Shown: positions 7,831 through 32,389 of the stretch, piece by piece
Numbering within the stretch: position 1 is the stretch's first letter
Layout: each line of letters starts with the position of its first letter
Assembly (NCBI GenBank): GCA_964187785.1
Contig: OZ076409.1
Span: 1,426,001-1,490,000 of the forward strand
Origin: Amphiscolops sp. MND2022
Lineage: Eukaryota
Reading direction: 5' to 3'
DNA: 64,000 bases
Notes under the pieces: generated by a model
Told to the model about the DNA's origin: nothing
Databases searched by the model: none
The model's input: only the letters and a program-made list of their open reading frames with translations
Made by a program: the position numbers and the translations under genes

Positions 7831-8476
7831 GTCATTGGTCACAATACTAAAATACCGTTTTCGACTAAAATACTATTTTCAATAATTTGCTATCTCGAAA
7901 AATATGTTTGATAATATTTGTAAACAATATTGTTCTTTTGTTAATTGTACCAATGTATTCACTGTTATCATTGTATGCTACAATGTTTTCGATAAACGAG
8001 ATGGTTCGAAAGAAATTTTCAAAACGGACTGTAATTAGCGGATTAGCCAATTCACCTAATACAGTTTCTTTACCATGGCTCGTCCATGATCAATGCATGA
8101 TACTCCAATGCGAATTATTGTGATTCATTTAAGCTTCCAACAGACAACCAATGAATTATACAATCAGAGGTTAGCAACGCCATGCTACAACCGACGCTAC
8201 TTCGCAGTTCTTAAAGTATTCTATTGAAAATGTCTTAACACTACTCTGGCAATAAAGTTATTAAAATTTCATTTTTTGTTTAAATTTTTTAAAGCTAATA
8301 TGGTGTTAGAAAGTAGGGCTTAAACCTCATTTTGTATTTTTTAGAACTGATCTTTTCGGCATTTTTTGAGACACCCGGGTTGCCGCCACTCCGAAATTTC
8401 TTAGTCTGGGTCCAGGTCTGACAGGAAAACTCGCGACACGATCTTGATTCGAAACATCTGGCCTAAACTTCACCAA

Positions 8477-12279: not shown

Positions 12280-12560
12280 TCATTTCCAGTCAGATTTTTT
12301 CAAATCCAGGCAATGTTTTTTGATTTTCAGTCAGGTTTTTTCAAATCCAGGCAAGTTGGCAAGTTTTTTTTCTTTTCCAGGCAAGTTGGCAAGTTTTTTC
12401 ATTTCCAGACAAGTTTTTTTCACTTCCATGCAAGTTTTCTTTCAAATCCAGTCAGGTTCTTTCAAAACCAGTCAAGTTTTTTCAGTCAGTTTTTTTTCAA
12501 ATCCAGGCAAGTTTCGTCAAATCCAGGCAAGTTTTTTCCATTTCCAGTCAGTTTTTTTTT
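12280..12560 (+). repeat. Low-complexity minisatellite (CAAATCCAGGCAAG / CATTTCCAGTCAG units separated by T-runs)
   Basis: More than ten related short units directly before the exon 2 acceptor. Confidence 0.8.
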
Positions 12561-12569
12561 CATTTGCAG

Positions 12570-12777
12570 GCAAGCTGCACTACCCGACAGACGTGTGTGG
12601 ACCCCTATTCGAAGAAGAGCTGGCGTTCTGGGGTCTGGACTCGAACCAGGTGGAGCCCTGTTGCTGGATGACCTATGTCCGGCACAGGAACACAGAGGAG
12701 ACCCTGGGAATTCTGGAGTCCCTGGAAATCGATGGTCACGAAGACGGAGAGGAAAACGAGGAAAAACTTTTTGAAAG
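12570..12777 (+). CDS. Shaw: Shaw/Kv3 coding exon 2 (T1 domain C-part)
   Basis: tttgcag|[41 protein letters not shown], including the HX5CX20CC Zn site. Donor AG|GT at 12778. Phase 1 in, phase 2 out. Confidence 0.95.
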
Positions 12778-13896
12778 GTTTAAAAAATTATGTTTTTTCC
12801 AGATCTCACGAGCGTTCATACTATGAACCCACCAGAAAATGGTCGCGTTTCAAATCGAGGATTTTAATCGAAATTTTTCCCGTTGGCGTTCGACTGGATA
12901 GAGTTAAGGGCAAACTTATTTCAAAATGGTGATGTATTTTGTTTTTTTTTTGCAAAACATGTTCGAACATTTAGGTCCAAAAACCGAAATTGATGAAAAT
13001 CTGAGTGTTTATGAGCCCCATGTTTTATTAACATCACATTTCGAATTAGTTTTCCCATTAATTTCTATCCAATCAAACACCAACGGGAAAAAATTTCGAT
13101 TAAAGTCCGGAAAGCATTTGAAAAATTTTATTTTTGAAAACTTAAGACCAAAAATGTTTATTTTGGCTGTGCCATATCAAAAAACGTCGAAAAAGGAACC
13201 ATCTAGTTTCGAATCTTTACTTACAATTTCCTGCCTAATTTAGACTAAAAACACAAGGAAATGATTCTGAAACGACATTTTGATCACAGACGTTTTGTCC
13301 GCTTCATTATTGACAAAAAAAGTATTCAAACAAGCCATGGATTTTTTTGTTCAATCCAACCCTACACTAGTAAAAAGGCAATAGAACGTAGAATCCACAA
13401 CAAGCTGGGAACGACATGAGTCGGGGCATCGCTTGAGGCTCAAAAGTAGCGAAAAATTGTCAAAGCGTCAATGATTCTTTCGTTATTCGACGCCCACCCC
13501 CGTAATAGGGTGAAGTAAAGCTCTTCTCTGTAAAACTAAAAACTTTTTGGAAAATCAGTGAAAAAATTGTAACAAAAAGGCTGATTACAAACCAGAAACA
13601 TTCAATATTAAATCCACGCAGTATTAATGAGAAATTGAACAGCTTCCTGTTTTGGGTAAAAAAAAAATAAAAAACCAGCGAATTCGAATATACTAACGGT
13701 CAAAATGTGTGAAAAATATTTTTTCAACAAAAAACAATTATAATACACGTTAACTTCCTGTTATGGAAAAAGAATTTACTTTTAATTAGGCTAGTCTGCA
13801 CTTTTTAAGGAAAGGTACTATTAAACATTTTGGTGGTCGGGAAAACAAAAAAGAGCCGGAATCAATTTTCTTCTTTTCTTTATAAATTCATTTTAG

Positions 13897-14555: not shown

Positions 14556-15801
14556 CAGTAGAGTATTGTGACTGTGGAAAGAGCTTCTAAAGTTGGAAAA
14601 TGTCGATTAGGAGCAAATCTGTTGTGTTATTTCTCTGAATCGAAACAGTCAAAGAGAACTTTCATACGACAGTGAAGCATAGACAGAAAATCAATTTTTT
14701 GCCCGATCGTAATCTGGACTTTAAATTTTTTTTACTAAATTTCGAGAAAATCACCCAATACCAAAAAATTATGAATCATTCTTGAACATTGACAATTCAT
14801 TTTACCAATGCTTCAAAAGTTTTGAACATTTCCTAAAAGAATGGGACCTATTTGCTTCCAACAAAATGTTCATTTTCAATACTCTACTGATGCCTTCGAA
14901 AATCAAGTTATAACTAACTACTGCTTAATTAGAGTAGACAACGCTTAACGTTCCCCAAAGCCGGCGACCAACTATTTCGAAATGATAATTTCCATGAAAT
15001 TTTCATTTCGAAATCAAACCAGGATTGGGTCTTTTCGGTCGTGGCCTCCCATACTTGAACTGGATAATGAAAAATTTGACCTTGTATGATCCAGAAGAAT
15101 TACTTTCTTTACTAAATCTCGAAAACCTTCGTACCTTTTCAAACGTCAACTTCTCAATACATATATTATATAGTATATATATAATAAAAATGCATAAAAT
15201 ATAAAAAATTTAAAAAATAAATATATTTATGCATTTTTAGAGGGATTGCATAACTTCTAAGCTAAGGTGTACGATTAAGACACGAAAAGACCCAAAGTGA
15301 ATTTTATCTTTCTTAGCAAATAATTGTGTTCGTGAAATACAAGCAACAAGCAAGCGGCATTAAATGAAAACTTGCAACTAATTTATTACAAGTTGAGTGA
15401 GCTTTCATTCTAAAGATGAAGAAACTAGACGATTAAAGTTTGATTGAATTTTCTTTTGATATGCAATTAGAGACTTACTACATGAAGTATTTTTATCGAT
15501 CGTTCAAGAAAGCACCCTGTCAAATTCAGCACCTATACCTTCATTTATATTGTATATAAAAAAGAAAGAAAAAAGCTGAAATTTCTTGTTTCATTCTCAC
15601 GAAATCAAATTATTGCTGTTTTGAGATGGTTTTATTTTTAACAGTCACATTTTGAATGAAGGTCAAATTCCGACTACTTGGAAATTTTGTCAAACTTTTT
15701 TAAACTATGACAGCAATTTACGTTAGAAGTTTTCACAGTGTAGTTTATGATTTGTCAAAATGAAGGCCTAAATCAGAGAAATCCCTTTTCCTCATATTTA
15801 T

Positions 15802-17520
15802 TGTCGCAGGCTGCCGCCTGTGACGGCACTAGGATTACGACAACAGCAGTTGGCCAAGATGTGGCCCCAGGAACTCTCCCTATCTATTAAAGTAAACTAA
15901 AACTTTCTCTTAAACTTTTACATTGTTCATGTATTTTGTTGCCATATTATTTTAGAAAATAGCCAAAAGGGCCATATTGGGACGTATTCCCTTATTACTA
16001 AAACTTGGAAATATTGCACTTGTTGGTTAGTTATGATCGATCTTAATTTTGGATGCTAATTATATGTTAGTCTGTTAACATAGATAGTGTTGTACTGTTG
16101 TATTATCAATGCGATGCAGTAATAATCAAAGATTGTGGTAAGCAGCTTAAAGAAAGTACGGAAACGAGTTCAAATGGACTCCTGTACTTTCTTGCTAGCG
16201 TCACTTGCGCTCACTCAATTAGCCAATCAGAGGCCTTCATTTTGTATGCTTTATTCTTTTGCCAATTACGGCCATTGTACAAACTGGACAGAAGTGCTAT
16301 TAATGCCGTTCAGGCAGTTGGCCTAATCCGGCCATTCAGTCCGCCGTAAATAAAGTACTTGTGATTGGTGCTAATTTCATGTAATGATATTTAGCTAATA
16401 GTCAGCTTTGTTAATCATGGAGTACTAGTTTGAAGTGTTGATTGATGTTTTGTCGTACCACTAAAGTTATCCAATTTGTTCTAAAATAGATGTTGCATGA
16501 GATACGATATTATTGCCTTACTAGGCCTTTTGCCATTGTACCCATGAAAGGTATTTACGTTAAACATATTTGTTGTGCTGCCACGTGCTAAAGTATGTGC
16601 ACTTATGTCAACAAATACCTGTCTGATGAAAATGTTTTGACAAATATGTAAACGATGCTAACGGTCGAATGATTATTCCTTTGATGTATGTTATTTGGAA
16701 GGGATATTGTTCATCCCGTGATCATCAAAAATGCAGTCATATGATATTGCCTTAGTCAAAGAATGTAAAGAATGGGAGTGTCACTCTTTCAGGGGTATAA
16801 ATACCCGTGCCTTGGAGAGAGGAGTCACTTCTCAATTTGCTCTCTTTTGAAAAAGACTATCATATTAGTACAAACGGTTTCACTGTTATTTTCGAGATAT
16901 AATCTAATTTAGTTTTATACTCGAAGTTTTCCTTATGCCTACCACAAGAAAACAAAAGAAAGCCAGAAAATCTAGAGGACTAGAGATCCTTTCTGATATC
17001 GAAAATCTGGATATAATGTTAGGAGACAATTGTTATAATGGAACTGAGAGAGAAAGAAGCTTGGACAATAACTTCGTCGGAAGGAGAGAAAGCATTACAA
17101 GTAATAACTTAGACAATGAAGGCGAGAGCCTATTTTCTAATTGCAGAAATGATGAACTTAGGACAAATGCCGATTTCGGTCAAAATTCAGCTGAAGCAAA
17201 CTCACTAACTGAGATAAACAGGTTGTCTAGCGAATTGAACTCTAGGATATCTCGAGAGATGGATGAAGTGATGAACAATGTTGGAATACAGATCCAAAGG
17301 GCCATTAACGAGGCTATCAATAGTCAAGTATTACCTCAGATACAGAATGTCATAATGGCCGGATCGGGCCGACAGACCGGGAGGGGATGGGAAGTCCCAG
17401 TTGAGAGACCGGAAACAAATGCCGAAGATAGGCTTAATTCCAACGCAAAGCCCAATCTCAGAAGTGAACAGGGGGATAATCACCGTTTTAGTGAGAATAC
17501 CACACAGCATGTTCATGACA
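15802..17520 (+). repeat. 5' LTR (1,719 bp)
   Basis: Starts TGTCGCAGG, ends CATGACA. No mismatch with 30059-31777 found in spot checks; the ORF translations in the two copies are identical. Confidence 0.95.
16796..16830 (+). promoter_or_regulatory. LTR core promoter: TATAAATA plus Inr-like TCACTT (predicted TSS ~16827)
   Basis: TATA box at 16796 lies inside the inverted repeat GGGTAT-AA-ATACCC. The Inr A is 31 nt downstream, and the gag ATG 108 nt further. Copy at 31053-31087. Confidence 0.6.
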
Positions 17521-18647
17521 TGGTGACAGGAGACACCGAATCTCCACCTCAAGTTCCCGAGTTTCTCACGGGACGAGTCTCATCCAGAAACCATCTTGAC
17601 AGGTCCTATGAGGACATCAACCTCGACACGACGATCCCAGCACAAGAGAGAAATGCTCCGGCTGCTCTGACTGACCCTATTACTCGACTGGCAGATGTCT
17701 TGACAACGATGCAGAATAGGCCGACAGCCCAACAACTCACTATACGCCCAGTCAATTCCAACACAATGACTTTTGATGGCAAGAGTGAAAAATTCGAGCT
17801 GTTTGAGGACCTGTTCCATACGATGATCAAGATGCAACCAGAAATGACTGAACAAATGAAGATCAATCATTTCCACTCTTTATTGAGAAAGAATGCTCTT
17901 CAAACGTTCAGAAACATCAGTTCGAGCAATAGACAAACTTTAGAAGATGTATTAATCATCTTTAGACGAAAATACGTCAAGCCCGAGTCACAGGCAACCG
18001 CCAAACACAAATGGCACCGACTAGTCTTTGATCCCAACACGATGAAACTGCCCGACTTCCTTGAAGAATTAAATCAAGGGGCAGAAAAGGCGTTTGGCGA
18101 TCACGCGCAAAAAATGATTGACAGCTTGCTTTACGCAAAACTGCCACCGAAACTGAAAAGGTCTGTAAATATGGCAAGACTAGAAAATGGCTCATATGAC
18201 GAGATAGTTGCTCATTTGGAGAGGGAATTAGAGCTTAACGCCCTCGAGGAGTCAGATGATTTACCAATAGCAACAATGACTTCCTCATCAACCAAGCCCA
18301 AAACCCCTCTGTCCGCTGGGCAAATGTCTGATATTACTTGCAATTATTGCAAAGAAAAGGGCCACATAGTCAAGGAATGCGAAAAACTCAAAAAGAAGAA
18401 AGAAAAAGATGCCCAACAAGGCAAACAGATTCAGAAAAAGACGTATCCGGAGTGTGGCACATGCGGTAAAAAGAACCACCCGGAGGAAAGATGTTGGCAA
18501 GGTGCCGGTGCGCATCTTAAACCCAAACGCACCAGACCAGATGACGCTAATGAAGGCAAACCCAATTCAAAGGCGCAGAAACCGCAAAACAAGCCGACAT
18601 CTTCAAACTCAAAATCCTCATCTTCCGACGATGAGTCAAAAAACTAA
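16935..18647 (+). CDS. gag: Gag polyprotein, 570 aa, with two CCHC zinc knuckles
   Basis: Capsid-like FDGKSEKFELFEDLF region; CNYCKEKGHIVKEC and CGTCGKKNHPEERC (CX2CX4HX4C). The first 195 codons lie in the 5' LTR. Confidence 0.9.
   Translation: MPTTRKQKKARKSRGLEILSDIENLDIMLGDNCYNGTERERSLDNNFVGRRESITSNNLDNEGESLFSNCRNDELRTNADFGQNSAEANSLTEINRLSSELNSRISREMDEVMNNVGIQIQRAINEAINSQVLPQIQNVIMAGSGRQTGRGWEVPVERPETNAEDRLNSNAKPNLRSEQGDNHRFSENTTQHVHDMVTGDTESPPQVPEFLTGRVSSRNHLDRSYEDINLDTTIPAQERNAPAALTDPITRLADVLTTMQNRPTAQQLTIRPVNSNTMTFDGKSEKFELFEDLFHTMIKMQPEMTEQMKINHFHSLLRKNALQTFRNISSSNRQTLEDVLIIFRRKYVKPESQATAKHKWHRLVFDPNTMKLPDFLEELNQGAEKAFGDHAQKMIDSLLYAKLPPKLKRSVNMARLENGSYDEIVAHLERELELNALEESDDLPIATMTSSSTKPKTPLSAGQMSDITCNYCKEKGHIVKECEKLKKKKEKDAQQGKQIQKKTYPECGTCGKKNHPEERCWQGAGAHLKPKRTRPDDANEGKPNSKAQKPQNKPTSSNSKSSSSDDESKN
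17521..17532 (+). promoter_or_regulatory. Primer-binding site TGGTGACAGGAG (tRNA-Leu-like, tentative)
   Basis: Directly after the LTR-terminal CA. 11/12 match to TGGTGTCAGGAG, the complement of a common metazoan tRNA-Leu 3' end as I recall it. Confidence 0.6.
18638..18644 (+). promoter_or_regulatory. -1 ribosomal frameshift slippery site A_AAA_AAC at the gag/pol junction
   Basis: Gag ends TCA AAA AAC TAA. The pol frame is -1 relative to gag and opens at 18635, just upstream of the heptamer. Confidence 0.8.
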
Positions 18648-21600
18648 CTTCGCCACGACTCCAATATAACGAACTAATATCTGTCCGACAATACATCAGA
18701 TCGGACCCTCCAACACAAACTTTCCACCAATACAATCAACAATTGATGGGCTATCCCTCTGTTGTCTGGCAGCAGCAGATGGAAAAAGCTACCATCATTA
18801 CCTACAATAATACCCATTTGTTCCAGAAACCAATTCCTGTATGGGATCCTGATTACACATCTGCTTTCAATAGCCGATTCAGGCCCATTCCCCTGGTAGA
18901 CAATTACAACCCTACCTACATAGACCCCGATTATGGACGAGATCCCTATTGGGACACGGAACTCTACAACCAAGATCTCCTACAATTTCAATACGTCATT
19001 GATGACATCGAACTCTACAATAAATCAGCCCATGAAAACCCTCCAATCACCCACAACAAGAAAACTAGAGCATTGATTGAAACATGGCAGATGAATGATG
19101 GTACAAGCCATCCGGTGTTCCCAAACCCCTTGGGGACCGAGACCTCAGACAAACCAGACGAAACAATACCACAGTCACTACTTGATGAAAGTCAGTTCCA
19201 AAACATCCTCATCACTAGAGAAGGAGAACCAGACTGTATTCCACTGTCCACCAACATAAACTTGAAATGCAAAAAACGCATGCTGTATTTCCCTATGGAC
19301 TTTGGGGAATTGACCATAGACGGACTTATCGACACTGGTGCATTATCCAGTGCAATCCCCGAAATGGACCTCCGGAAAATCAGGCTCCTATCACCCCAAT
19401 CAGTCATCCGGGAAGGTCCACCTCCGAATTTCCAGATAATGGTCGCAAATGGGCAACTAGAGACTCCCAAGAGTACAATAGAGCTCAAATTCGAAGTTGG
19501 TGACATAGAGTTCCACGAAATTTTCATAGTAATGGAACACTTGACAGGACCGATCATAGGGCTGATGTTCCTACAGAGAAACCATACAGTTTTGGACATG
19601 AGGCAAGGAATACTGAACTTTCCATTCTTTTCGATGCAGCTCAAAACAGCTGACCACAAATACTCGAATGTACTCGAACCAATTTTGAACCCTACCGAAA
19701 TAACCATTCCGCCAAACGACAGAGTCCTAATTAGGACCAATTCCCTATTGTACCCTGAAAACACGGTCACAGGGATTTTACAACCGAGCGACCTTCTCCA
19801 TGAAGAAGGCGACATCACATTCTGTCCAGCCTTGGTCACCATGAATGACGGCAATATATTGATACCAGTGAATAACTTCACAGACCACCCTTACAAACTC
19901 AAAAAGGGACTCCATATTGCTAGTTTTTCAGTCATGACGCCAGAACAAATGAAATATGTCAAACCAGTAGACCCGGCATCAACCTGGCATTTGTTGCAAA
20001 ACGACCAAGAGCAGGCAGCCCATTACGTCAGTAGCCTGATCAAGACGAATAAAAATTCACAAAACTCTGAAAACTACTGGTTCCCAACCCCAGAGAATCC
20101 AGGGAACCCAGCAGAACATACACCAATCCAAAAAAGGATACTCCGCGAATTACAAGCCCTACAGGACCTAGAATCACTCGATCCCACAAAGGATGAGGAA
20201 TCTAGGGCAAAATTCCTAGAAAACTTTGACTGGAAAGACTCCACATTGACACCTGATGAAAAAGAGAAAATCGAACGATTACTAGTGGAGTTCCATGATA
20301 TCTTTGCGAGACATAGATTCGACATAGGCATGAATGAGGAATTCAAAGTGAAGCTGACACCCAAAGATGATTCCCCAGCCTATAGCCAGAGCCTCCCTGC
20401 ACCGATAAACTTAAAGGAGGACATTTTAGTCGAATTGGCCATGCTCCACAAATACGGCATAATAACTACCTTACCGTTCTCGAAATACGCCAGTCCGATA
20501 TTCGCACAAAAGAAACCGAATGGGAAACTGAGACTTCTGGTTGACTTGAGAAAAATCAACAACCTAATCTCTGATGATTATATCAACAATAATCACCCAG
20601 TCAGTACCCTCGTCGATGCCGCCCAACACATGGCAGGCAAGAAACTCTTTTGCAAGTTGGACTGCTCACAGGCGTATCATTGCCTTCCGATGGCTGACCA
20701 ACGTTCAATCGAAATGTTGGCCTTTAACTTTGCAAGCCGCACATTTGCCTATAGACGGCTGGCACAAGGCCTTAATAGGGCTCTGTCCGCATTCTCCAGC
20801 TTTATGAGAGAATACCTTGATAAAGTCATAAAAGCGGACCAATGTGCTCAGTATGTAGACGACATTGGAATCGCAGCCAACGACGCAGATCACCTCATTG
20901 CTAACCTGAGAGCAACTTTCAAATGCATACAGGAAGCAGGCCTTAAATTGTCAATGCATAAGTGCCATTTTGGTGTCACAGAAATCGATTTCCTTGGCAG
21001 GACAATAACCGCACAAGGCGTCAAGCCCCAACGGCAGAATGTTCAGAATTTCCTAGAAAAGACCAAATTTCCGAAGTCGAAAAAGGCTCTACAAAGATAT
21101 TTGGGTTTCTTGAACTACTACCGGAATTATGTCCCAAGACTGTCTGAACGCCTTGCTCCGTTCTACAAAATGCTGAAGAGTGACGAAAAAGTCCTAGTGT
21201 CCAAAGACCTAGTTCAGCAATTTGAGGAAATCAATCGAGCTCTGGACAGATGCTGCGACTTAGCCCTACAACAACCCATCCCGAACAAACAAATCGCCCT
21301 AATGACAGATGCAAGTTTTGGTGCTGCAGGATATGCAGTACTCATCGAAGATGACCCGAGTCAGAAATTCACGTCAATCCGCAAATCATATGCTCCGGTC
21401 GCCTATGGTTCAAAAACCTTCACCCCAGCCCAGATAAAGATGTCAATTTATGCAAAAGAATTTCTCGCAATTTATTTTGCATTCAAAGAATTTGGGCATA
21501 TTTTTTGGGGAGCGCCGAAACCGGTCATAATCCTAACCGACAACAAAGCCGTAACAAGATTCTTTCAGACGAAAATCGTACCCCCAGCTCTGTGGAATGC

Positions 21601-23839
21601 ATGCGACTATGTGATTCAATTCAATTTTGTCATCGCGCACATCCCAGGAGCACAAAATACAGCAGCGGATTACTTGTCCCGATTGGAAGCAGACCCAAAG
21701 GACAAATTAATAATGAAAATCCGAGAAGATGTACAAACATTGCCAATAGAAATAAACGTCCAATCAGCAGGAGTCTCACAGGAAGAGCAAATCTTCTACA
21801 CCAATGACGACGATGAGACTGAAGAACAATATTGGGCGAGAAAAGAGGCAATCAGGAAAAATCCTGTAATCGAAGACACTACAGTTACAATACAAACTCT
21901 TTCCACTAACTTAGCCAAACAACAACCTGAAATACAAGTCCGATTGAGGAAAACAAACCAGATAATTATTGAGCAATCCAAGGATGCAGTATTACATCAA
22001 TTGAAGGCAAAACTCCTTCACGAAGACTACTCAGAAAACATACTGCAACAGGATGCTCGATATAGACACTATGCAAATAATCTGGAACGAATCGTACTCA
22101 AGGACGAAATCCTGACAAGGCAATACTTCGATGAAACAGGGATAGTGAAATACCATCAGATTTTACTCCCGCAACATCTACTCCGGGAACTGCTTCAATC
22201 CCTTCACGGGACAGCACACAAACACCCCGGAATTTCAAAAATGCTGCAGGAAATTAGACAAAGGTATTACTACCCTAACATGGCTAAACACGTCAAAAAG
22301 TGGGTAGAAGGGTGCGAACAATGTGCCAGAGACAAAAGAGTCCCTGACGCAACGATCACACCAGAGCTGCTCAATTTGCCCGAATGGGACCTTGGACCTG
22401 AAGACGCCATGCAAATTGACCTATTGCCGAATCTTCCCCCAAGTGGAGGGTATGAAAATGTCCTAACAGCAATTGATGTTTTCTCCAGATATTTATTCGC
22501 TTACCCTCTCACGGACGCATCAGCGATCAATGTAGCCAAAGTACTCATTGATATTATGACCAAACATTCCTACTTACCGACAACGCTCATTACAGACAAA
22601 GGAACTGCATTCACTTCCACAATTATTGCAGAAATTACCCAAATTTTAGGAATTACCCTAAAATGTGCGACAACAAAGCACCCGCAAACTATCGGGAAAT
22701 TAGAGCGCACACATGCCTCATTGAAAACAAACTTGAAAATGGCATGTGGGGAATATCGCCGACAATGGCACAAATATTTGCCATTAGCAGTTCTGAATCA
22801 CAATACTAGTTATCATGCCAGCATCGGATGTGAACCGACAAGAGTGTTCCATGGAAGAATCCCATACAACATCTTGGATCACAAGCTTGGAACAAATCCA
22901 AACGAGCAAATCCATCCGACTACCGAATTCGCAGAAGAAATCCAAAACCGGACAAAAATCCTAATTGACAAAACGAAGCAGAACATTATGCAGTCCTACA
23001 TCAAGTACAAAGAATATTACGACCGCAAAGCAAAAGCCGCTCCATTAAAGGAGAAAGAATACTGTTTTGTCTTACAGCCGAAAGCGGACAATCAAGGATC
23101 AAAAATCCCATTTAGAGATTATCGCTGGGTTGGACCGTTTATAGTCCAGAAGACCTTACCCAATGAGAATTACATTGTCCGCAGGCTTAATACAAATAAA
23201 ACACAGATCTTGCATCGAATTCGTCTCAAAAAGTTTGTCCCAAATCAGCCACTTGAGGACAATTTCCGTGAGCAACGCTTGCAGCCAGACGAAGAAATTG
23301 TTATTCCGCAGGATGACTTATACATCATAACGTGGGAAACCGACTTTGGCGAGCAGCTAACTACCCGAGACAACGAAGCTATTCCGACTAGCTTACCGAC
23401 TGGCGAACAGCCGAGTACGGAACGAATCAACAATGACGCAAACGAGAGTGACGCGGATTATACAATCACGCGAGAAACGAATAACGACAATACGGCACAC
23501 AGCCGGAATGACCGCTTGAGTGACAACGTCACAATGGGAAATGAAGATAATGATGCAAATAGAAATAAAAAATCCGATTGGCCGAATCCGGCCGCTAGCC
23601 CAAACACTCAAGAAAAATCACCGGGTACAACAAATGCACCGGAAAATCATGAAATTTTGTCAGAAAGAAATCCGCTGAATGAAAAAGATGCTCGAAACTC
23701 TCCAAATAGGGGGGATGATATTATCGTGCCCGAAATATCTGAAAACGATGCTAGAAACGAAAGCCTGAGCCCTAGAGGAGGAAAATATAACCTCAGACCT
23801 AACCCCAACCCAAACTACTCAGAAGACTATAGATACTAG
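18638..23839 (+). CDS. pol: Pol polyprotein (protease, RT, RNase H, integrase), intact, probably made as Gag-Pol by -1 frameshift
   Basis: LIDTGA protease; KLDCSQAY/YVDD RT; TDAS..E..TD..ADYLSR RNase H; HHCC + IDL/TDKG/LERTH integrase; WVGPF motif. Frame open from 18635 to the TAG ending at 23839 (the track starts it at 18743). Confidence 0.96.
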   Translation, partial: KKLTSPRLQYNELISVRQYIRSDPPTQTFHQYNQQLMGYPSVVWQQQMEKATIITYNNTHLFQKPIPVWDPDYTSAFNSRFRPIPLVDNYNPTYIDPDYGRDPYWDTELYNQDLLQFQYVIDDIELYNKSAHENPPITHNKKTRALIETWQMNDGTSHPVFPNPLGTETSDKPDETIPQSLLDESQFQNILITREGEPDCIPLSTNINLKCKKRMLYFPMDFGELTIDGLIDTGALSSAIPEMDLRKIRLLSPQSVIREGPPPNFQIMVANGQLETPKSTIELKFEVGDIEFHEIFIVMEHLTGPIIGLMFLQRNHTVLDMRQGILNFPFFSMQLKTADHKYSNVLEPILNPTEITIPPNDRVLIRTNSLLYPENTVTGILQPSDLLHEEGDITFCPALVTMNDGNILIPVNNFTDHPYKLKKGLHIASFSVMTPEQMKYVKPVDPASTWHLLQNDQEQAAHYVSSLIKTNKNSQNSENYWFPTPENPGNPAEHTPIQKRILRELQALQDLESLDPTKDEESRAKFLENFDWKDSTLTPDEKEKIERLLVEFHDIFARHRFDIGMNEEFKVKLTPKDDSPAYSQSLPAPINLKEDILVELAMLHKYGIITTLPFSKYASPIFAQKKPNGKLRLLVDLRKINNLISDDYINNNHPVSTLVDAAQHMAGKKLFCKLDCSQAYHCLPMADQRSIEMLAFNFASRTFAYRRLAQGLNRALSAFSSFMREYLDKVIKADQCAQYVDDIGIAANDADHLIANLRATFKCIQEAGLKLSMHKCHFGVTEIDFLGRTITAQGVKPQRQNVQNFLEKTKFPKSKKALQRYLGFLNYYRNYVPRLSERLAPFYKMLKSDEKVLVSKDLVQQFEEINRALDRCCDLALQQPIPNKQIALMTDASFGAAGYAVLIEDDPSQKFTSIRKSYAPVAYGSKTFTPAQIKMSIYAKEFLAIYFAFKEFGHIFWGAPKPVIILTDNKAVTRFFQTKIVPPALWNACDYVIQFNFVIAHIPGAQNTAADYLSRLEADPKDKLIMKIREDVQTLPIEINVQSAGVSQEEQIFYTNDDDETEEQYWARKEAIRKNPVIEDTTVTIQTLSTNLAKQQPEIQVRLRKTNQIIIEQSKDAVLHQLKAKLLHEDYSENILQQDARYRHYANNLERIVLKDEILTRQYFDETGIVKYHQILLPQHLLRELLQSLHGTAHKHPGISKMLQEIRQRYYYPNMAKHVKKWVEGCEQCARDKRVPDATITPELLNLPEWDLGPEDAMQIDLLPNLPPSGGYENVLTAIDVFSRYLFAYPLTDASAINVAKVLIDIMTKHSYLPTTLITDKGTAFTSTIIAEITQILGITLKCATTKHPQTIGKLERTHASLKTNLKMACGEYRRQWHKYLPLAVLNHNTSYHASIGCEPTRVFHGRIPYNILDHKLGTNPNEQIHPTTEFAEEIQNRTKILIDKTKQNIMQSYIKYKEYYDRKAKAAPLKEKEYCFVLQPKADNQGSKIPFRDYRWVGPFIVQKTLPNENYIVRRLNTNKTQILHRIRLKKFVPNQPLEDNFREQRLQPDEEIVIPQDDLYIITWETDFGEQLTTRDNEAIPTSLPTGEQPSTERINNDANESDADYTITRETNNDNTAHSRNDRLSDNVTMGNEDNDANRNKKSDWPNPAASPNTQEKSPGTTNAPENHEILSERNPLNEKDARNSPNRGDDIIVPEISENDARNESLSPRGGKYNLRPNPNPNYSEDYRY

Positions 23840-24070
23840 AGAAAATTAAATTCGATTCAGGAAACTAGCCCTGAATTGCTTTGTCTTTTTCTCTTTTTAT
23901 CTTCTATTTTTTTTAAGTCCCAAGGCGAATCTTTTGAATAAATAATTGGGACAACCAACAACACCCCTTCAGGAGAATAAATACGAGGCAAAGAAAAAAC
24001 AGAAATGAAAATTCAACAAAAGAAATAAACAAAGTTTACAGTCTGTAAGTACATAAATACATATGTACAA

Positions 24071-25233
24071 TTAACTCTTAGAACCACCAGCAGAAGATTC
24101 ACTATGGACGGACGAAGCTCTACCCCGGGAACTACTCTTTTCCATCCGCCTCCGCTTAGTACCACTGGGCGGCCTCACAGCAGGAACATCAGGCACAGAA
24201 GAAGTATCAGCGAAGTTGGGACTTCTAAATTGGAATTCTGACCCGGCGAGGACAGAGCGATAGGAGGTGACGAGAGTCTTGTAAATTGCTGAACGGCCGA
24301 AGCGGTCTACAAAGGTCCACGGGTCGTAATCGGCAGTGAAGGCAGTCTGTCCAAATGTAGAAGACAATTCGAAAAATTTATCGAGACGAGACTCAGAACA
24401 GCAGGCAACCAGAGAATCTGGCACTGTTGACAGATAACTTTGACAAGGCAAGATGACATCCGCTAAACGGGACTGAAGCCCCTTTGTGTCAATCTTACCC
24501 AAAGAAACAGAAGGATACTCAGGACTCACAGAAGTGATACAGAGGCAACTCAGCTTGAACAAATAACAGAGATGCTCATGAGTGTGGAGGAACTCCAATC
24601 CCATAAAGAAGTCAATGAGATCAGGAGGATCGCAGGAGGAGTCGAACTCAGAAGAATGATTAGCTCGGAGGTAATCCAATAAGGCAACGTACTCGTCCCG
24701 GCAAACTGACTCATTGGACGCTGAAACCCAGGAACGCAGTTGAAAGGTAGAATATAGACGGTCAAAGTGCCGCAAAGCAACTTCTACGGGCCTCCTAAAG
24801 AGGATATGTGGATCAAACGCAGCCAGTCCTTTGATGAGGTCAGACCCGAGTTCGGAGTGTTGAAGTACTCCGGACAACAAGAACTTGATGAATTCCTTCG
24901 AACTCTTCACAAAGTCTGACTTTGCACTTTCGGCAGTCTTGTCGATGGCTGCCTTGCTGGACTTTTTATTGAAATGAAGCCCCGCTGCCTTCAAGTTGCT
25001 CGCTGTAGCCACTTTACTAGCAATCTTGAGCCGTACCAGGAAATCTTCGTCACTCATAGGCTTGCCCTGACTGATTCGGAAGTCCATCAACAGGAACCAA
25101 GCGCTTTCCAGAGGCACAGTGTCAGGCTGGTAGATGCGGAAACAAAGACGATTGATGTACTTGCACATCTCTCCACAAAGGAAGAAGGTAGCATCTCGCC
25201 TCTGACCCAGATTGATGGCGAAACTAGTGACAT
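24071..25233 (-). CDS. Antisense accessory gene, exon 6 (last): hAT C-terminal-like helical region plus basic tail KRRR
   Basis: Acceptor ttctgtgtttcag|AT, phase 1. Reads (Y)VTSFAINLGQRRDATFFLCGEMCKYINRL..., in frame with track ORF 24071..25168. Confidence 0.8.
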
Positions 25234-25307
25234 CTGAAACACAGAACCTGAAGGTCCTTAAAAGGACGACAGACCAAAAGGGGCTCCACCAGACAAGAGA
25301 TACTCAC

Positions 25308-25389
25308 AATCGCTGACCAGGCGTTGGAACAGCTCCAGTTTGACAGCGAAGAAGGTGTCCATGATCAGGGACCACTCGAAGCTCTGGAC
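25308..25389 (-). CDS. Antisense accessory gene, exon 5
   Basis: tctttccacag|GTC...: VQSFEWSLIMDTFFAVKLELFQRLVSD, then T|gtgagt (phase 0 in, phase 1 out). A 74-bp intron follows. Confidence 0.75.
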
Positions 25390-25499
25390 CTGTGGAAAGA
25401 CATGGTGTAAATTCGGAACGATAACCCTACCTATGCTTATGAAAAGGAACGTCCACTAGAACTATCTCTAAAAAGACAGATGATTTTGTGAATTACAAC

Positions 25500-25634
25500 C
25501 TTGTTATGGACCCCTTGATTCTCCTGTCGGCGTGAATACACAGTGAGGTAACGCAGGATCGACTTCCACCTCTTCAGTAGATCACGACACAGATCAGGTA
25601 TTTTAGCTACCTCCAGAGTGCAAGTTGTAATAGC
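25500..25634 (-). CDS. Antisense accessory gene, exon 4
   Basis: Branch-like CACTAAC, then gttttgtttag|GCT: AITTCTLEVAKIPDLCRDLLKRWKSILRYLTVYSRRQENQGVHNK. Donor AAG|gttgta (or GTT|gtaatt 3 nt later; both phase 0). Confidence 0.72.
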
Positions 25635-25731
25635 CTAAACAAAACGATTTGAAAATAGGAACCCTAACTGTTAGTGGCTACCTCCGCCCTTCACCTATAT
25701 TATACAAAACAGGTTTGCAAAATGCACTTAC

Positions 25732-26217
25732 TTGGACAAGTACAGTCGATTCGTTGACCCAGTCCTCAGATAGGCAGCCTCCAAGCGAGACCAGAAGACA
25801 CTGGAGGACGGAGAACATGTCAATGTGCCCGAAAACGCTGTAGTTTACCTTGTGCATCAAGGCCCTCAACTCAAGCGTCTCGAATCGGAAGCAGCTTTGG
25901 ACCCCACGAGGGAAGGAGGGATGCTGGTCCACTGTCCTTATCAGGTCAACGGCACATCCAGATATCGCGACCACATCAGGAGCGGTAGAAATGGCAGACA
26001 ACAATCGTGATAGGGAGCCCATCTCCTCAGTGAGCCCGACGCCGGAAAGTCCACTTCGACAGACGAAGATGCGACAGAGCTGTGCACCCTTCCAAAATCG
26101 GAGAGACATCAAGCGGTTGGCCCCTCTCTTTTCGAACTCAATCCCATAGTGCTGGGAAGCGATGACATGTTCTGCCACGTCTTCCATCATGCAATTGAAG
26201 ACGTGTTGGAAAACGGC
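25732..26217 (-). CDS. Antisense accessory gene, exon 3 (degenerate RNase H-like core of a hAT transposase)
   Basis: gttccgtttcag|GCC: AVFQHVFNC...YGIEFEK..LMSLRFW..VVAISG...STVLVQ|gtaagt. Phase 0/0. Confidence 0.8.
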
Positions 26218-26316
26218 CTGAAACGGAACATAACTCGAATGACCATACGGCCTTACCATTGCAAGTTACCCTTACACTACGAATGACTCCATGATGAAAT
26301 AAACGAGTGAACTTAC

Positions 26317-28280
26317 CATGATGTGGTCTTCACTCCAGTCGAAATCTTGGAAGGCTGATTGGAATCCAGTATAGCTTCCTGCTCTAGCCCACAACCTACG
26401 GAGGATAGCTATGTTGCCTGAATCTTGAACGAAATCTCCCAAGAGGCAAATCTGGGCTTGCAGTCGCGACTGAGGTGTTACTGGTGCCGAAGAGTGTCCC
26501 TTCAAGTAATCCTCATAAAAAGGATGTCTCTCACCGACGTCAACGAGCTCTGTGTGGATGAATTTGGGGAGCTCTTGCGCAAGGTCAGATTTATTGAGGA
26601 TTTTGCCGTCCCTTCCTCGGACTCTGTGGTGGACCTTCCCTGTCACGTCGTCAACTGTCTTGAGGTGCTCATATCGCCACCTCTGGTCTCGGCGAAGGTG
26701 TTTCTCAGTTCTGTGGTGGCGCAAGATTTCCACAGTGCCTTTGGTCTTTATACTAAAGTTTTTCTTGCACATGTGGCACCACACCATGTGAGGGTTATGT
26801 AAGGGATCGGCTGGGCCAGAAATAAAGGATCGAGTCCATGCTATCTTGGAGAAGAACTCCTCACGCATAGGCACACCCCGCCTCGGCATCCTTTTGCTTT
26901 TACTTTTCTTGACTGAGACAACTGCCTGACGGGACTTCTGGGTAGGAAGCCGATCGCGAAGCTCAGACAGAGTGCAGTCCAGACTGCTCCTTTCCTGTAT
27001 TTCAGCCTCTCCTTCAGTCGTGCTATGTGGCAATTCTGGTTGTGAGGATACAGAGAGATTTTCAGGAACAGTTTTGTTATAAACTCTGTCAATCAAGAGC
27101 CGTTCCATAGTACTATCACTATCTTCGGGATAGGAGAGGCCGCTGACATCCTGAAGCGTGCTCAGGTCAAGTTGGGGACTAGGCTGAGAGCCAAGATCGG
27201 CAGAAAACTCGTCGGAGCTGGTCCCTGCTTGGCAATTGGATCCTGGGGAGGGAACTTGGGCTCGCGTCTGGAACTTCTTAGTCCGTGAAGGGGCAGTCAA
27301 GGGAGTTCCTTTCACTGCTCCAAGTACCATTCTCTCCATGGTGGTGCAGGTCATATTGATGGCTTCGTCAGTAAGGACCCGAAGCAGGTGGTAAACCTGC
27401 GGCTCTGTGAAGGCTACAACCCTCTGACCAACCGGGAACGTGTAGGGGTCTTCAGCCTCAAAGTACTGTTTGAGGGTGGCTCTGCTGCGTCCTGATAAAT
27501 CTCGCAGAACTTCTTCTTGTGGCTGAGGATTAAACTGAGAAGTCCCTGGCGGTCCTGGATCATGTATTTCTGATCCCGAGTCTTCTTGAGTTTCTGTTGC
27601 TGACCCCATTCCAAAGGGGATACCCGCGTACAAGAGGGGAATTTCAGACTGACTGGTAGTATCAACAGCCTGAGTGGTGTCACTATGGTTTCCTGAAGCG
27701 GTGAAATGACTTGCCCCACCGGGGAGTGGAGGGGGTTCATGGACGGAAGAAGAGGCTTCATCACCAGACTGCGGGAGAGAAACTGCAGATGTATCGTGGC
27801 TATGGTCCTGAGCAAGTTGCAGCTCAGGGAAGCCAGACTGAGATTGTGGCGCGACTGACAGTGAGGACTCGAGCTGTGAAATACTAGTAACTTCTGTTCC
27901 AGGCTGACCAAAGAGCGTCGGAGTGCTAGTTCTCACTCGGATAGGGACGTGGTCCGTGCCTGGGACAACTGGGTCTTGTGCCGGAGACGGCTCTTCTCCT
28001 GTAGGACTGGCAAGATCTGTACCAGTCAACTCCTGTGAGACTTCCATACGTTGGACCATCTCGTCTGCATATGCTGTGACATCGACGTTGCTTTCATTGC
28101 TGAAAGGAGAGTCAACAGCCAACTGTTGTGTCTGACCGAGGAGCGTTCTTATTGGAGGGAATGGAGGTGGAGAAGGCGTATTGCTGGGCATTGAGATGGG
28201 TACGGGACGGTGAGGAAGCGCAGCGGAATTACCAGTTGTGGTAATGCTTTGAACTTGTGGTTCATCGACGTTCTGTTGTT
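26317..28280 (-). CDS. Antisense accessory gene, exon 2 (long S/P/T/E-rich disordered region plus BED-type zinc finger)
   Basis: Acceptor tttcatctctttctgtttag|AA. VWCHMCKKNFSIKTKGTVEILRHHRTEKH at ~26784-26698. Ends DHIM|gtaagt, phase 0. Confidence 0.85.
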
Positions 28281-28479
28281 CTAAACAGAAAGAGATGAAA
28301 TTTGGCGGTAAGCTTCCTTGAAAGAAATCCATTCTACCGCATTAGAAAACTTCCGGAAGTACTTTGAAAATTTGAACAAAACGTGTTATCACGTGTTTAC
28401 TGATGGATACAGGAAGCATTTTGTGAACAAATTTAGCCCTGATCAAGTTAAATTAAGTTCAAAACCAAAGCAAACCAAC

Positions 28480-28495
28480 CTTCAACTGAAGACAT
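28480..28495 (-). CDS. Antisense accessory gene, predicted coding exon 1 (MSSVE-)
   Basis: ATG TCT TCA GTT GAA G|gttggt. Phase 1 matches the 28280 acceptor, and the donor hexamer is the same as Shaw exon 1. An alternative start is the ATG at 28332. Confidence 0.5.
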
Positions 28496-29376
28496 TCTGT
28501 CCTGCTTCGCCTTTTACTGTCGGACCGATCAAACTCAGGAGACGTAGAATCTGGCCGGACTCGGACCAAGGGCAAGTCCCGGGAGTACTTCAAAGAGGAA
28601 GAAGGATGCTGTTGGAGAGATTAAGAAGAGTGGGGAAAACTGTTCGATACGGGGTACCAGAGGAAGAAGATAAAGAAAAATAATTGGAATTGAATCGGAA
28701 TTAAAAGAGGTTAATGGAATTTAAAGTTGGAGTTCGTGGCTGAAGAAAGTTACCAGACTAATATTATTTAGTTATCTACATATTTATTCTGTACATGGAG
28801 TCTGCCAGCGAAGTGTACAAGAACCTTATTATCTACAGCTTACTTAGTTAGTGGCCTATCCTGGCCGTTTGACCAGTTGTACTTTATAGTTTCGTTCTGT
28901 TATCTTGGATTATTCTCAATTAGGAAATCCGCCATTTTGAATTATTTTGATTTATTATTTTCGCCATTTTATTATCTAATTTTTCATTTTATCAGAGCTT
29001 AACTCTGATTGGCTGGAACCATATTGAAAGAATTTAGCGGTGCGAGCTATTAAGCGATCCGAAGCAAGCCGTTAATTACCCACTTGAAGAGAAGATATTT
29101 GATATCAACAACTTAAGTGCTGCTTACACCCACTTTGATGATGGCTCGCATGAAAGGCAAACACCTACTTAATCGGAGCCGCCGACCCTGCTTAGGAATT
29201 TCATTCAGGAAAGTTTATGATGAATCGGGCTAATCAACCTGAGATTCTCCCGCTAAATTGGAAACTTCGGGAAGAAGCCTAACTCGGAATTTGGGGAGGC
29301 AACAAGCTCATTCTAATTTCAAACTCGCTCTCGACAAGTTGATTAGCAAATCTCCAAAATTGCGAAAAAACTAATA

Positions 29377-30147
29377 ATGGAAAGATTTAATAAAGCGAGA
29401 AAACTCTTTGGTTCTTTGGAATTCAGCTCCGACTCATCGGGAGACTCAGTAATATACATCAGCAGCGATGAAGAAACCTCTGACGGATGGGACTCAGACT
29501 GGTCCACGGACACGGAAGAGATGGTGAGAAGGATTGAAACTCAAGTCCAGGCAAAACCAATTCTCATAGCCGGCAGAAAGATGACGACGGCAAGCGACGA
29601 ACCGGGCCCTAGCTCCGTGCCTTCAGACGTGCAAACCACACCGAAATTGGACAAGACCTACTTCGACGAAAAACTATGCTATGCTCCGTCTAGAGGCAAC
29701 ACAAAGAGGAGAATAGAATTGTGCAAGACAATTCTGCCTGTGTTAGAGTCGCCGCTTTCGCCGCCCGCTCATGAAAGGGGGCCGTCTATGGATACGCCGA
29801 TGACACAAACCGAAAGTAGTGAGTTCCATGCCTCTTTCCACATACAAAACGCGTTGCCTTATACTGATATCAGCTCCCAAAGGTGCACAAGCTGTATGGT
29901 GTGTGGAAAATCTGTGGACGAAATAAAAGCCATGAAGATAAACAGATATATGGAAGCCTCGACTCCAAAGAGCGAACCCGCTTACATTACAGCTCTCAGA
30001 AAAGAAGCTTACATCAATGGTCTTAATGCGGGCAGTCTCCTTTTTATTGCACCCGCTGTGTCGCAGGCTGCCGCCTGTGACGGCACTAGGATTACGACAA
30101 CAGCAGTTGGCCAAGATGTGGCCCCAGGAACTCTCCCTATCTATTAA
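29377..30147 (+). CDS. Accessory ORF, 256 aa, unknown function; last 89 nt lie inside the 3' LTR
   Basis: Uninterrupted ATG ORF with an acidic Ser-rich N-terminus and a CTSCMVC Cys cluster. No signal peptide or clear TM helix. Crosses the LTR boundary at 30059. Confidence 0.7.
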   Translation: MERFNKARKLFGSLEFSSDSSGDSVIYISSDEETSDGWDSDWSTDTEEMVRRIETQVQAKPILIAGRKMTTASDEPGPSSVPSDVQTTPKLDKTYFDEKLCYAPSRGNTKRRIELCKTILPVLESPLSPPAHERGPSMDTPMTQTESSEFHASFHIQNALPYTDISSQRCTSCMVCGKSVDEIKAMKINRYMEASTPKSEPAYITALRKEAYINGLNAGSLLFIAPAVSQAAACDGTRITTTAVGQDVAPGTLPIY

Positions 30148-31777
30148 AGTAAACTAAAACTTTCTCTTAAACTTTTACATTGTTCATGTATTTTGTTGCC
30201 ATATTATTTTAGAAAATAGCCAAAAGGGCCATATTGGGACGTATTCCCTTATTACTAAAACTTGGAAATATTGCACTTGTTGGTTAGTTATGATCGATCT
30301 TAATTTTGGATGCTAATTATATGTTAGTCTGTTAACATAGATAGTGTTGTACTGTTGTATTATCAATGCGATGCAGTAATAATCAAAGATTGTGGTAAGC
30401 AGCTTAAAGAAAGTACGGAAACGAGTTCAAATGGACTCCTGTACTTTCTTGCTAGCGTCACTTGCGCTCACTCAATTAGCCAATCAGAGGCCTTCATTTT
30501 GTATGCTTTATTCTTTTGCCAATTACGGCCATTGTACAAACTGGACAGAAGTGCTATTAATGCCGTTCAGGCAGTTGGCCTAATCCGGCCATTCAGTCCG
30601 CCGTAAATAAAGTACTTGTGATTGGTGCTAATTTCATGTAATGATATTTAGCTAATAGTCAGCTTTGTTAATCATGGAGTACTAGTTTGAAGTGTTGATT
30701 GATGTTTTGTCGTACCACTAAAGTTATCCAATTTGTTCTAAAATAGATGTTGCATGAGATACGATATTATTGCCTTACTAGGCCTTTTGCCATTGTACCC
30801 ATGAAAGGTATTTACGTTAAACATATTTGTTGTGCTGCCACGTGCTAAAGTATGTGCACTTATGTCAACAAATACCTGTCTGATGAAAATGTTTTGACAA
30901 ATATGTAAACGATGCTAACGGTCGAATGATTATTCCTTTGATGTATGTTATTTGGAAGGGATATTGTTCATCCCGTGATCATCAAAAATGCAGTCATATG
31001 ATATTGCCTTAGTCAAAGAATGTAAAGAATGGGAGTGTCACTCTTTCAGGGGTATAAATACCCGTGCCTTGGAGAGAGGAGTCACTTCTCAATTTGCTCT
31101 CTTTTGAAAAAGACTATCATATTAGTACAAACGGTTTCACTGTTATTTTCGAGATATAATCTAATTTAGTTTTATACTCGAAGTTTTCCTTATGCCTACC
31201 ACAAGAAAACAAAAGAAAGCCAGAAAATCTAGAGGACTAGAGATCCTTTCTGATATCGAAAATCTGGATATAATGTTAGGAGACAATTGTTATAATGGAA
31301 CTGAGAGAGAAAGAAGCTTGGACAATAACTTCGTCGGAAGGAGAGAAAGCATTACAAGTAATAACTTAGACAATGAAGGCGAGAGCCTATTTTCTAATTG
31401 CAGAAATGATGAACTTAGGACAAATGCCGATTTCGGTCAAAATTCAGCTGAAGCAAACTCACTAACTGAGATAAACAGGTTGTCTAGCGAATTGAACTCT
31501 AGGATATCTCGAGAGATGGATGAAGTGATGAACAATGTTGGAATACAGATCCAAAGGGCCATTAACGAGGCTATCAATAGTCAAGTATTACCTCAGATAC
31601 AGAATGTCATAATGGCCGGATCGGGCCGACAGACCGGGAGGGGATGGGAAGTCCCAGTTGAGAGACCGGAAACAAATGCCGAAGATAGGCTTAATTCCAA
31701 CGCAAAGCCCAATCTCAGAAGTGAACAGGGGGATAATCACCGTTTTAGTGAGAATACCACACAGCATGTTCATGACA
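30059..31777 (+). repeat. 3' LTR (1,719 bp)
   Basis: Direct repeat of 15802-17520, followed by TSD TTTAT. Confidence 0.95.
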
Positions 31778-32389
31778 TTTATATTATCACGTGTTTATTA
31801 CAGGAGGAGAATTTTCAACTTCCTAAATTGAATAGGATTTCCGCATTATATCTTGTTTCTCTCCACAATGGTTTGTTTCGTTGCAGATTAAAGTTAAATG
31901 CTCTTAGATGAGATAATCTTGTAATTTATTGTAATTCTCAACACTACGTAGGATTTTATAAGTCTCTGAAGCGTATCAAAATGAGACTTGAATCCTTTGT
32001 AACCCCTCACATATTGCAAATACCTGACAGCTTTATTACTTTTCACTTATTGTGGAAGATCATTTGAGGTATATTATAATATTATAAACTGTTTAGTAAC
32101 AATATTAAACGCCTTGAAATTTGCTGCAGCAGTTACTGAGTTCTTTACACGTGGGTTTGATCGAAACATAAACTCCGAACAATATGAAATATCACCTTTT
32201 ATGGACTTAACATTTACATGGGAACGGCATATTCTATTACAAAAACCGAATTACAATAGACCTTTGAAAAAGTAGTTTCCAAATATCAACTAACGAATGA
32301 TAATTCATGGAAATTAAAATGTGTATGGCCTATTTTTCTCAAAAATTCCAAAATTTATTTTGATCCAATTAGTAGAATTTTCAAACCTT

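Follow-up and report, generated by a model that had tools for sequence, protein, structure and literature searches.

How can a gene with five spliceosomal introns persist inside an element that multiplies through RNA? Sense-strand introns are normally lost when an element is copied in this way. The question is raised by a 64,000-nucleotide (nt) stretch of the genome of Amphiscolops sp. MND2022 (contig OZ076409.1, forward-strand positions 1,426,001 to 1,490,000; hereafter the window, with position 1 its first letter), where an earlier interpretation made from the letters by themselves (hereafter the sequence-only reading) had proposed that six minus-strand exons between 24071 and 28495 form one gene within a retrotransposon. 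Our analysis suggests, with a probability that we put at about 0.8, that this is a genuine accessory gene of a Ty3/gypsy-like lineage, lying between pol and the 3' long terminal repeat (LTR) on the strand opposite to the genomic RNA. The orientation may itself supply the answer: the spliceosome recognises introns only in the sense of the transcript, and antisense introns stay in the genomic RNA and in the cDNA made from it.

Joining the six exons gave 3,846 nt, divisible by three and with its sole stop at the end, which yields the single frame of 1,281 amino acids (aa) that the sequence-only reading had described. The five introns were likewise reproduced at the lengths and with the donors given there (199, 99, 97, 110 and 74 nt, starting with GTTGGT, GTAAGT, GTAAGT, GTTGTA and GTGAGT), and each ends in an AG preceded by a pyrimidine-rich tract. 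As an observation, the spliced antisense frame is confirmed. Its parts, in the direction of the gene, are the following (families A, B and C are element families discussed below):

28480-28495, minus strand: exon 1, coding part (ATG plus 13 nt), with ATG, 16-nt length and donor kept in families A, B and C
28281-28479, minus strand: intron 1, 199 nt, GTTGGT..AG, unusually conserved
26317-28280, minus strand: exon 2, 1,964 nt, encoding a long N-terminal stretch of low complexity, a patch of basic residues and a zinc-finger motif of CCHH type
26218-26316, minus strand: intron 2, 99 nt, GTAAGT..AG, with an in-frame stop inside
25732-26217, minus strand: exon 3, 162 codons
25635-25731, minus strand: intron 3, 97 nt, GTAAGT..AG
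25500-25634, minus strand: exon 4, 135 nt
25390-25499, minus strand: intron 4, 110 nt, GTTGTA..AG, 109-113 nt in other copies
25308-25389, minus strand: exon 5, 82 nt
25234-25307, minus strand: intron 5, 74 nt, phase 1, GTGAGT..AG
24071-25233, minus strand: exon 6, 387 codons including the stop, encoding a predicted all-alpha domain and a disordered basic tail

The gene does lie inside a retrotransposon, as had been claimed. The whole LTR element spans 15802-31777, with a 5-bp target-site duplication on both sides, identical LTRs, and gag and pol on the plus strand:

15797-15801, no strand assigned: left target-site duplication TTTAT, with its right copy at 31778-31782, taken from the printed sequence context
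15802-17520, plus strand: 5' LTR of 1,719 bp, TG...CA, followed by the sequence TGGTGACAGG, which resembles a primer-binding site; from repeat comparison
16908-18647, plus strand: gag frame, beginning within the LTR and running over the primer-binding site; from open reading frame (ORF) and Pfam evidence
18635-23839, plus strand: pol, with protease, reverse transcriptase, RNase H and integrase; from Pfam
30059-31777, plus strand: 3' LTR, 100% identical to 15802-17520

The pol domains follow one another in the order protease, reverse transcriptase, RNase H and integrase (Pfam stretches at residues 221-315, 626-791, 861-986 and 1179-1350 of the frame), with matches to RVT_1 (E = 8.4e-23), RT_RNaseH (1.9e-15), Integrase_H2C2 (8.5e-17) and rve (7.4e-12), while the gag frame matches DUF1759 (E = 2.9e-5) and zf-CCHC (E = 0.0092), both under the Pfam cut-offs. 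RT_RNaseH and Integrase_H2C2 are models that we take to be associated with Gypsy elements, and DUF1759 presumably with BEL/Pao; overall, the element appears to belong to a Ty3/gypsy-like lineage in an animal genome, the host being recognisable as an animal by its Wnt genes. The antisense gene occupies most of the 6.2 kb that separate the pol stop codon from the 3' LTR.

If the gene is real, its frame and its splice sites should be kept when the element multiplies. A DNA search with 24071-28495 across the 1.07-Gb genome (1,929 contigs), in which 34 of 3,107 first-look candidates were scored, returned only full-length copies (34/34, of 4,425 nt, one a single base short) at 90-100% identity, introns included. 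Alignment of the window copy with 27 of these (28 in total) showed the spliced frame intact in 15 of the 28, one of them a codon longer. All five GT and all five AG dinucleotides, whose loss from paralogous copies would, by the sequence-only reading, have spoken against the gene, were kept in 27 of the 28, the exception being copy L022, with CT at donor 3.

The differences between copies are those of a protein-coding sequence. Compared with the 12 intact copies of a subfamily about 92% identical, the window copy gave ratios of non-synonymous to synonymous divergence (dN/dS) of 0.147-0.163 for the antisense gene, one such comparison showing 57, 54 and 186 differences at codon positions 1, 2 and 3. 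Third-position changes dominated in each of exons 2, 3, 4 and 6 when these were compared one by one with 25 copies. Frame-breaking insertions and deletions numbered 32 instances in introns 4 and 5 and two in intron 1, against five across all exons, and all five exonic ones sit in broken copies. Over these same copies, the pol C-terminus gave a dN/dS of 0.10-0.12 and ORF3, described below as another accessory frame, one of 0.08-0.14; the antisense values are close to these, so that the antisense frame is constrained about as strongly as the core genes. When relatives of exon 2 or exon 6 were used as protein queries against the genome, the first-look candidates numbered 6,990-12,323, and dozens of different open frames, 371-541 aa long, were among the results; the antisense gene marks a very large and diverse group of elements.

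More divergent families carry the same introns. In family B (contig 3, at least 20 copies at 99-100%) and family C (contig 1) the order is LTR, gag, pol, the reversed gene as separate exon matches, ORF3 in the sense orientation and LTR, and the proteins are 38-74% identical to the window exons. Introns 2-5 of both families interrupt the same codon in the same phase as in the window and are all GT..AG, with lengths (window, B and C) of 99, 75 and 78 nt for intron 2, 97, 90 and 91 nt for intron 3 and 110, 82 and 77 nt for intron 4; intron 5, 74 nt in the window, is a few nucleotides shorter in both. Across other families intron 2 measures 75-82 nt, and in some copies it can be read through in frame. 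Loci L041-L044, which represent at least three further lineages, agree in their exon boundaries and likewise meet pol tail to tail. Introns 2-5 thus occupy shared positions and phases in all seven loci examined, from at least six lineages of this genome, and their lengths differ, in keeping with the suggestion in the sequence-only reading that positions would be held while the intron sequences diverge. One family B copy also has LTRs that are 100% identical and a 5-bp target duplication of its own, AACCC. Considering that this element and the one in the window each combine identical LTRs with their own duplication, at least two independent recent insertions carried the introns through a round of copying. 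The proposal that the introns persist thanks to their antisense orientation fits both the 34 of 34 copies and the two recently inserted elements, of different families, that retain them.

Relatives of the predicted protein provide a further view of the junctions. Among 1.84 billion representative proteins, 460 are related to the peptide of exon 6 (E up to 0.001), reaching down to 27% protein identity, and the best 150 of the 460 are all exon-sized (at most 418 aa). Two of the relatives, P0007 and P0071, have no intron 5, so that exon 5 runs contiguously into exon 6; a third, P0053, has no intron 4, exon 4 being contiguous with exon 5 and followed by an in-frame insert at the position of intron 5. 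The closest identity to anything in the Amphiscolops genome is at most 42% for P0007 and at most 31% for P0071, so these two stem from other organisms. Such intron-less relatives confirm, at the protein level, the junctions between exons 4 and 5 and between exons 5 and 6. Among the exon 2/3 relatives, P0279, P0345 and P0358 read in frame through intron 2, and all of them end just past the end of exon 3, where an intron beginning with GT starts. Proteins of 1,146-3,270 aa, searched with the finger region, included no longer or fused relatives, and a scan of metagenome contigs from the Joint Genome Institute (JGI) with the finger-region alignment found no relative. Taken together, the selected frame, the fixed positions and phases and the contiguous relatives support introns 2-5.

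What could the protein do? Exon 2 encodes a C-x2-C-x16-HH-x4-H motif whose two cysteines and three histidines (C36, C39, H56, H57 and H62 in alignment A4) show no variation, 10 of 10 sequences having them all:

26698-26778, minus strand: C-x2-C-x16-HH-x4-H motif (WCHMCKK...LRHHRTEKH), from alignment A4

A tryptophan precedes the first cysteine of the motif (W-C-x2-C-x16-HH-x4-H), a basic patch lies before it, and S, P, Q and T are abundant over the first ~460 residues of the protein, where conservation is poor. Structure prediction gave a short beta-beta-alpha stretch for the zinc-finger region (predicted local distance difference test, pLDDT, about 76) and an all-helical domain for exon 6 (mean pLDDT 77); the model of the finger together with exon 3 was poor (mean pLDDT 49.6), and no structural match to it reached Z 5, nor did a protein atlas search with this region give a usable match. 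The exon 6 model had a best VIA-align Z of 5.7, within the range for unrelated helical proteins. We found no relevant Pfam family for 35 exon 6 relatives (E up to 1), no homology to TRP28 (PF04195) either for the exons at E up to 10 or for the 35 relatives at E up to 1, and no Pfam match to bZIP or another domain on exons or relatives. Tentatively, and by analogy with gene23 of maize Grande or with the accessory proteins that complex retroviruses encode, the product could be a regulator that binds nucleic acid in the nucleus and influences, in trans, the expression or integration of the element.

Conserved sequences outside the coding region suggest where the transcript would begin and end:

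28672-29287, no strand assigned: conserved non-coding block between the antisense gene and ORF3, with CCAATCAG, two copies of AAAATGGCG, a TATA-like and an initiator-like motif
28496-28752, minus strand: presumed 5' leader, poorly conserved and ATG-free in three families; from ATG counts
23840-24070, minus strand: presumed 3' untranslated region of the antisense gene; inferred from a kept motif and a hexamer resembling a polyadenylation signal

The block is 76% identical between families A and B, and its TATA-like motif lies about 30 nt before the initiator-like one; these names are those that we assume to fit the motifs. We presume that the block is an internal promoter, possibly a bidirectional one, since it adjoins the antisense gene on one side and ORF3 on the other and may serve both. 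The ~260 nt between the initiator-like motif and the exon 1 ATG hold no ATG in the three families (probability of none by shuffling, 0.045, 0.098 and 0.048), against 6-9 ATG in the 300 nt upstream of the leader. At the other end, TGTACATATGTATTTATGTAC stands directly 3' of the antisense stop (24040-24070, minus strand) and is kept in three families; it resembles what we take to be a Pumilio-type UGUANAUA site beside an AU-rich element. The hexamer lies about 170 nt downstream of the stop.

These pieces can be assembled into a scheme in which RNA polymerase II would start at the internal promoter near 28.75-29.1 kb and make a pre-mRNA with a ~260-nt ATG-free leader and five GT-AG introns, ending in the 230-nt gap before the pol stop codon. 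The spliced mRNA would be translated into 1,281 aa with a disordered N-terminal half, basic patches like those used in nuclear import, one CCHH finger and a large C-terminal region, mainly helical and outside any known family. On the plus-strand genomic RNA the same splice signals would read CT..AC and go unseen by the spliceosome, so that the introns would be reverse-transcribed and inherited by each new copy. Transcription from the internal block, splicing and translation of the antisense gene are what we infer from the arrangement and conservation of these parts.

Several observations weigh against a functional spliced gene, or against parts of it. Stops or frameshifts break the frame in 13 of the 28 aligned copies, as is expected of ageing insertions, and the introns overall diverge by 0.065-0.10, less than the synonymous sites (dS 0.24-0.29). 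No exon matched any Pfam family at E up to 10, a profile search of the PDB gave nothing below E 1.6, and the exon 6 model had no PDB match in Foldseek at E <= 0.001 (Foldseek E above 1). The guess at a function rests on motif, composition and analogy. The remaining difficulties concern the start of the gene. Exon 1 contributes only 16 coding nucleotides, and a competing in-frame ATG at ~28333, within intron 1, is contiguous with exon 2; the peptide that it would begin (MDFFQGS..PNFISFCLE) is also kept across divergent families. Moreover, conservation peaks in intron 1 (divergence p = 0.017, that of introns 2-5 being 0.10-0.13), which far exceeds every other part of the locus in this respect and so must have some function outside the gene model.

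The most serious alternative, which we nevertheless consider unlikely, follows from this: the gene would be real and its first exon wrong, with transcription beginning in or just upstream of intron 1 at the block of ACTTCCGGAAGT and CACGTG, and translation from the ATG at ~28333 giving five coding exons, four introns and about 1,298 aa. ORF callers choose this start, the peptide recurs in P0194, P0258, P0279, P0310 and P0252, and the CACGTG and the palindrome ACTTCCGGAAGT that intron 1 contains are motifs presumably typical of core promoters. Intron 1 is also 78% identical to that of family B, where most exons do not align as DNA. The pattern of change within intron 1 argues otherwise, as a hand count of its peptide between families A and B gave two synonymous against five non-synonymous codons, and the nucleotide conservation spans the whole intron, beyond the frame begun at ~28333. 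At exon 1, families A, B and C share the ATG, the donor GTTGGTTTG and the spacing of exactly 16 nt, even though the intervening 13 nt vary, alignable sequence starts exactly at this ATG, and the leader upstream of it is free of ATG in the three families. With reasonable confidence we therefore favour the exon 1 of the sequence-only reading over the start at ~28333; intron 1 could be an intronic enhancer or a second promoter of the gene.

The origin of the protein could be sought elsewhere, in a hAT-like transposase with a BED-type finger that was nested in reverse in an ancestral element and left the present frame as a relic. For exon 6, 23 of 30 atlas feature matches were to Dimer_Tnp_hAT clusters and other atlas clusters carry FAM200-GTF2IRD2-like (scores 0.90-0.93), the CCHH spacing is like what we take to be that of a BED finger, and the low-confidence model of exon 3 has the order beta-beta-beta-alpha-beta-alpha-beta. 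We find this improbable: the atlas recognition of 1951 is under the level reached by 91 in 100 known families, none of 35 family members matches any Pfam hAT model, PF05699 included (E up to 1), and hhalign, run on profiles of the exon 6 family and of C-terminal hAT domains taken from the same genome, gave a probability of 0.1%. The sole flanking inverted repeat is 19 nt long, 79% identical and of low complexity. Whatever the origin, selection now operates on the frame within the retrotransposon.

The antisense gene travels with a partner. On the far side of the conserved block lies a sense frame that is conserved between families:

29377-30147, plus strand: ORF3, second accessory frame, whose end lies ~90 nt into the 3' LTR and which is open in 8 of 8 copies

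ORF3 encodes 256 aa, its last ~30 codons lying in the 3' LTR. Families share 55-63% identity over this frame, with conserved motifs SVIYISSDEE and CMVCG; its best Pfam match was no better than E 0.063. Relative to the ~92% group, the antisense gene and ORF3 of the window show a dS of about 0.3, against about 0.78 for the pol C-terminus, and identity to this group (L004-L008) rises from 0.67-0.87 over 22571-24070 to 0.91-0.97 over 24071-29995, the jump being located at ~24070, the antisense stop codon. The pattern is reversed with respect to family B, where accessory dN is 0.36-0.58 and pol dN 0.046 (families A vs B), the accessory gene showing about ten times more non-synonymous change than pol. 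The differing divergence of pol and cassette, and the jump at the stop codon, suggest that the accessory cassette and the gag-pol backbone have recombined between families; so sharp a module edge suggests that such recombination may be one route by which accessory genes spread. The fast change of the accessory gene would be compatible with a regulator whose evolution follows that of its target or of the defences of the host.

A further question is whether the gene is of any use to the element. It could be a transduced host gene that merely hitch-hikes, and the capture of cellular genes by LTR elements is documented, the captured genes being typically present in one or few copies (passages of PMC7264820). 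The present gene was found in seven of seven loci from at least six lineages and has thousands of candidate matches, it is under purifying selection as strong as that on pol, and it moves as a conserved module with the upstream block and ORF3, all of which makes a passenger very improbable. Least probable of all is an antisense unit that acts as RNA, pairing with the genomic RNA for silencing or regulation by small RNAs with the long frame incidental, for which there are precedents in the non-coding antisense transcripts described for Drosophila micropia and TART and in the double-stranded RNA role proposed for plant antisense ORFs (both in passages of PMC7264820), against a dN/dS of ~0.15, a three-fold third-position excess over 1,281 codons, a frame intact in 15 of 28 copies at 8% divergence and protein relatives down to 27% identity. 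An RNA role may exist in addition to the protein.

An accessory gene in this place is familiar from plants. Additional ORFs in antisense orientation, placed between pol and the 3' LTR, have been reported in gene23 of maize Grande, rice RIRE2, Silene Retand (TRP28) and Phaseolus PvRetro13, and an own promoter and a nuclear protein are reported for Grande gene23 (passages of PMC7264820 and PMC11963269). As far as these passages go, the window gene resembles the plant ones in its location between pol and the 3' LTR, its reverse orientation, its presence in most copies of a family and the long internal region of the element. It differs in its animal host, in being much larger (1,281 aa), in its five introns and in bearing no relation to TRP28, and here a second, sense accessory ORF shares the intergenic block. 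The word 'intron' is absent from both PMC7264820 and PMC11963269. Outside plants, brtn is an antisense gene of Boty-like Gypsy elements in Botrytis cinerea and Sclerotinia (cited in passages of PMC7264820 and PMC8365987). Like the present gene, it is an antisense extra gene in a Gypsy element of a non-plant host; that host is fungal. The work cited for it is Zhao et al. (2011, Virology).

A spliced precedent comes from retroviruses. HBZ of human T-cell leukaemia virus type 1 (HTLV-1) and other deltaretroviruses is an antisense coding gene whose main transcript is spliced and whose intron is kept in the provirus. The HBZ promoter lies in the 3' LTR, whereas the promoter-like block in the window is internal, about 0.8-1.4 kb upstream of the 3' LTR, with the antisense coding start (28495) 1.56 kb upstream of it. 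HBZ is moreover a small bZIP protein with one intron, whereas the window gene has five and no bZIP match. An antisense promoter in HTLV is also mentioned in a passage of PMC7264820. Within the full-text literature searched, subscription journals being outside its coverage, no intron-containing antisense gene in an animal LTR retrotransposon turned up. Retrotransposition indicator cassettes exploit the same principle, with a reporter placed in reverse and interrupted by an intron, since an intron is spliced out ahead of reverse transcription only if it runs in the direction of the genomic RNA. Those cassettes are engineered, and their intron runs with the element and disappears when it is copied, whereas the window introns are antisense and kept. 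The principle and the layout are thus already known, from plants, from a Botrytis fungus and from the spliced antisense genes of deltaretroviruses. What makes the present case appear new is that its host is an animal, that the gene is large and has five conserved introns, that its protein is an orphan and that it is paired with ORF3.

It appears, then, that an animal retroelement can carry an intron-rich RNA polymerase II gene through repeated rounds of reverse transcription by placing it backwards. Accessory genes of retrotransposons are seldom annotated, and what they do is obscure even in plants; the present one would make a good study case, as a large gene under pol-like selection with many young copies, conserved candidate control elements and a partner ORF. 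There is also a risk for annotation, in that gene predictors will take such genes for 'host' genes or break them up into orphan ORFs the size of an exon, as the best 150 exon 6 relatives illustrate. A wider idea, which we regard as doubtful, is that of a 'complex' retroelement, an abundant animal superfamily that depends on a regulatory cassette (the backward five-intron gene, ORF3 and a shared bidirectional promoter) swapped between gag-pol backbones. If true, this would be a Tax/HBZ-like system independent of retroviruses, with an orphan zinc-finger protein as the main player; candidate copies of the superfamily number in the thousands in this 1.07-Gb genome, and other organisms have relatives of it.

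Other features of the window touch the element less directly. No Rfam family was found across the element at E up to 0.1, and no tRNA gene in the window. The flanks hold no informative host gene besides a weak BTB_2 match (potassium-channel tetramerisation type, E 6.8e-5) in the open frame 12134-12823 (plus strand) to the left of the element, which may be a host exon.

The LTRs themselves have an unusual relation to gag. The gag frame begins about 590 nt inside the LTR (16908-17520) and crosses the primer-binding site, so that the 3' LTR carries a copy of the first ~200 gag codons in a frame (31165-31911) that runs on into the flanking DNA; family B does likewise. The first ~1,060 nt of the LTR (15802-16860) are hardly alignable to family B (L035), even as the pol proteins of the two are 92% identical, and the alignable parts are only the first 105 nt (71%) and the gag-coding end.

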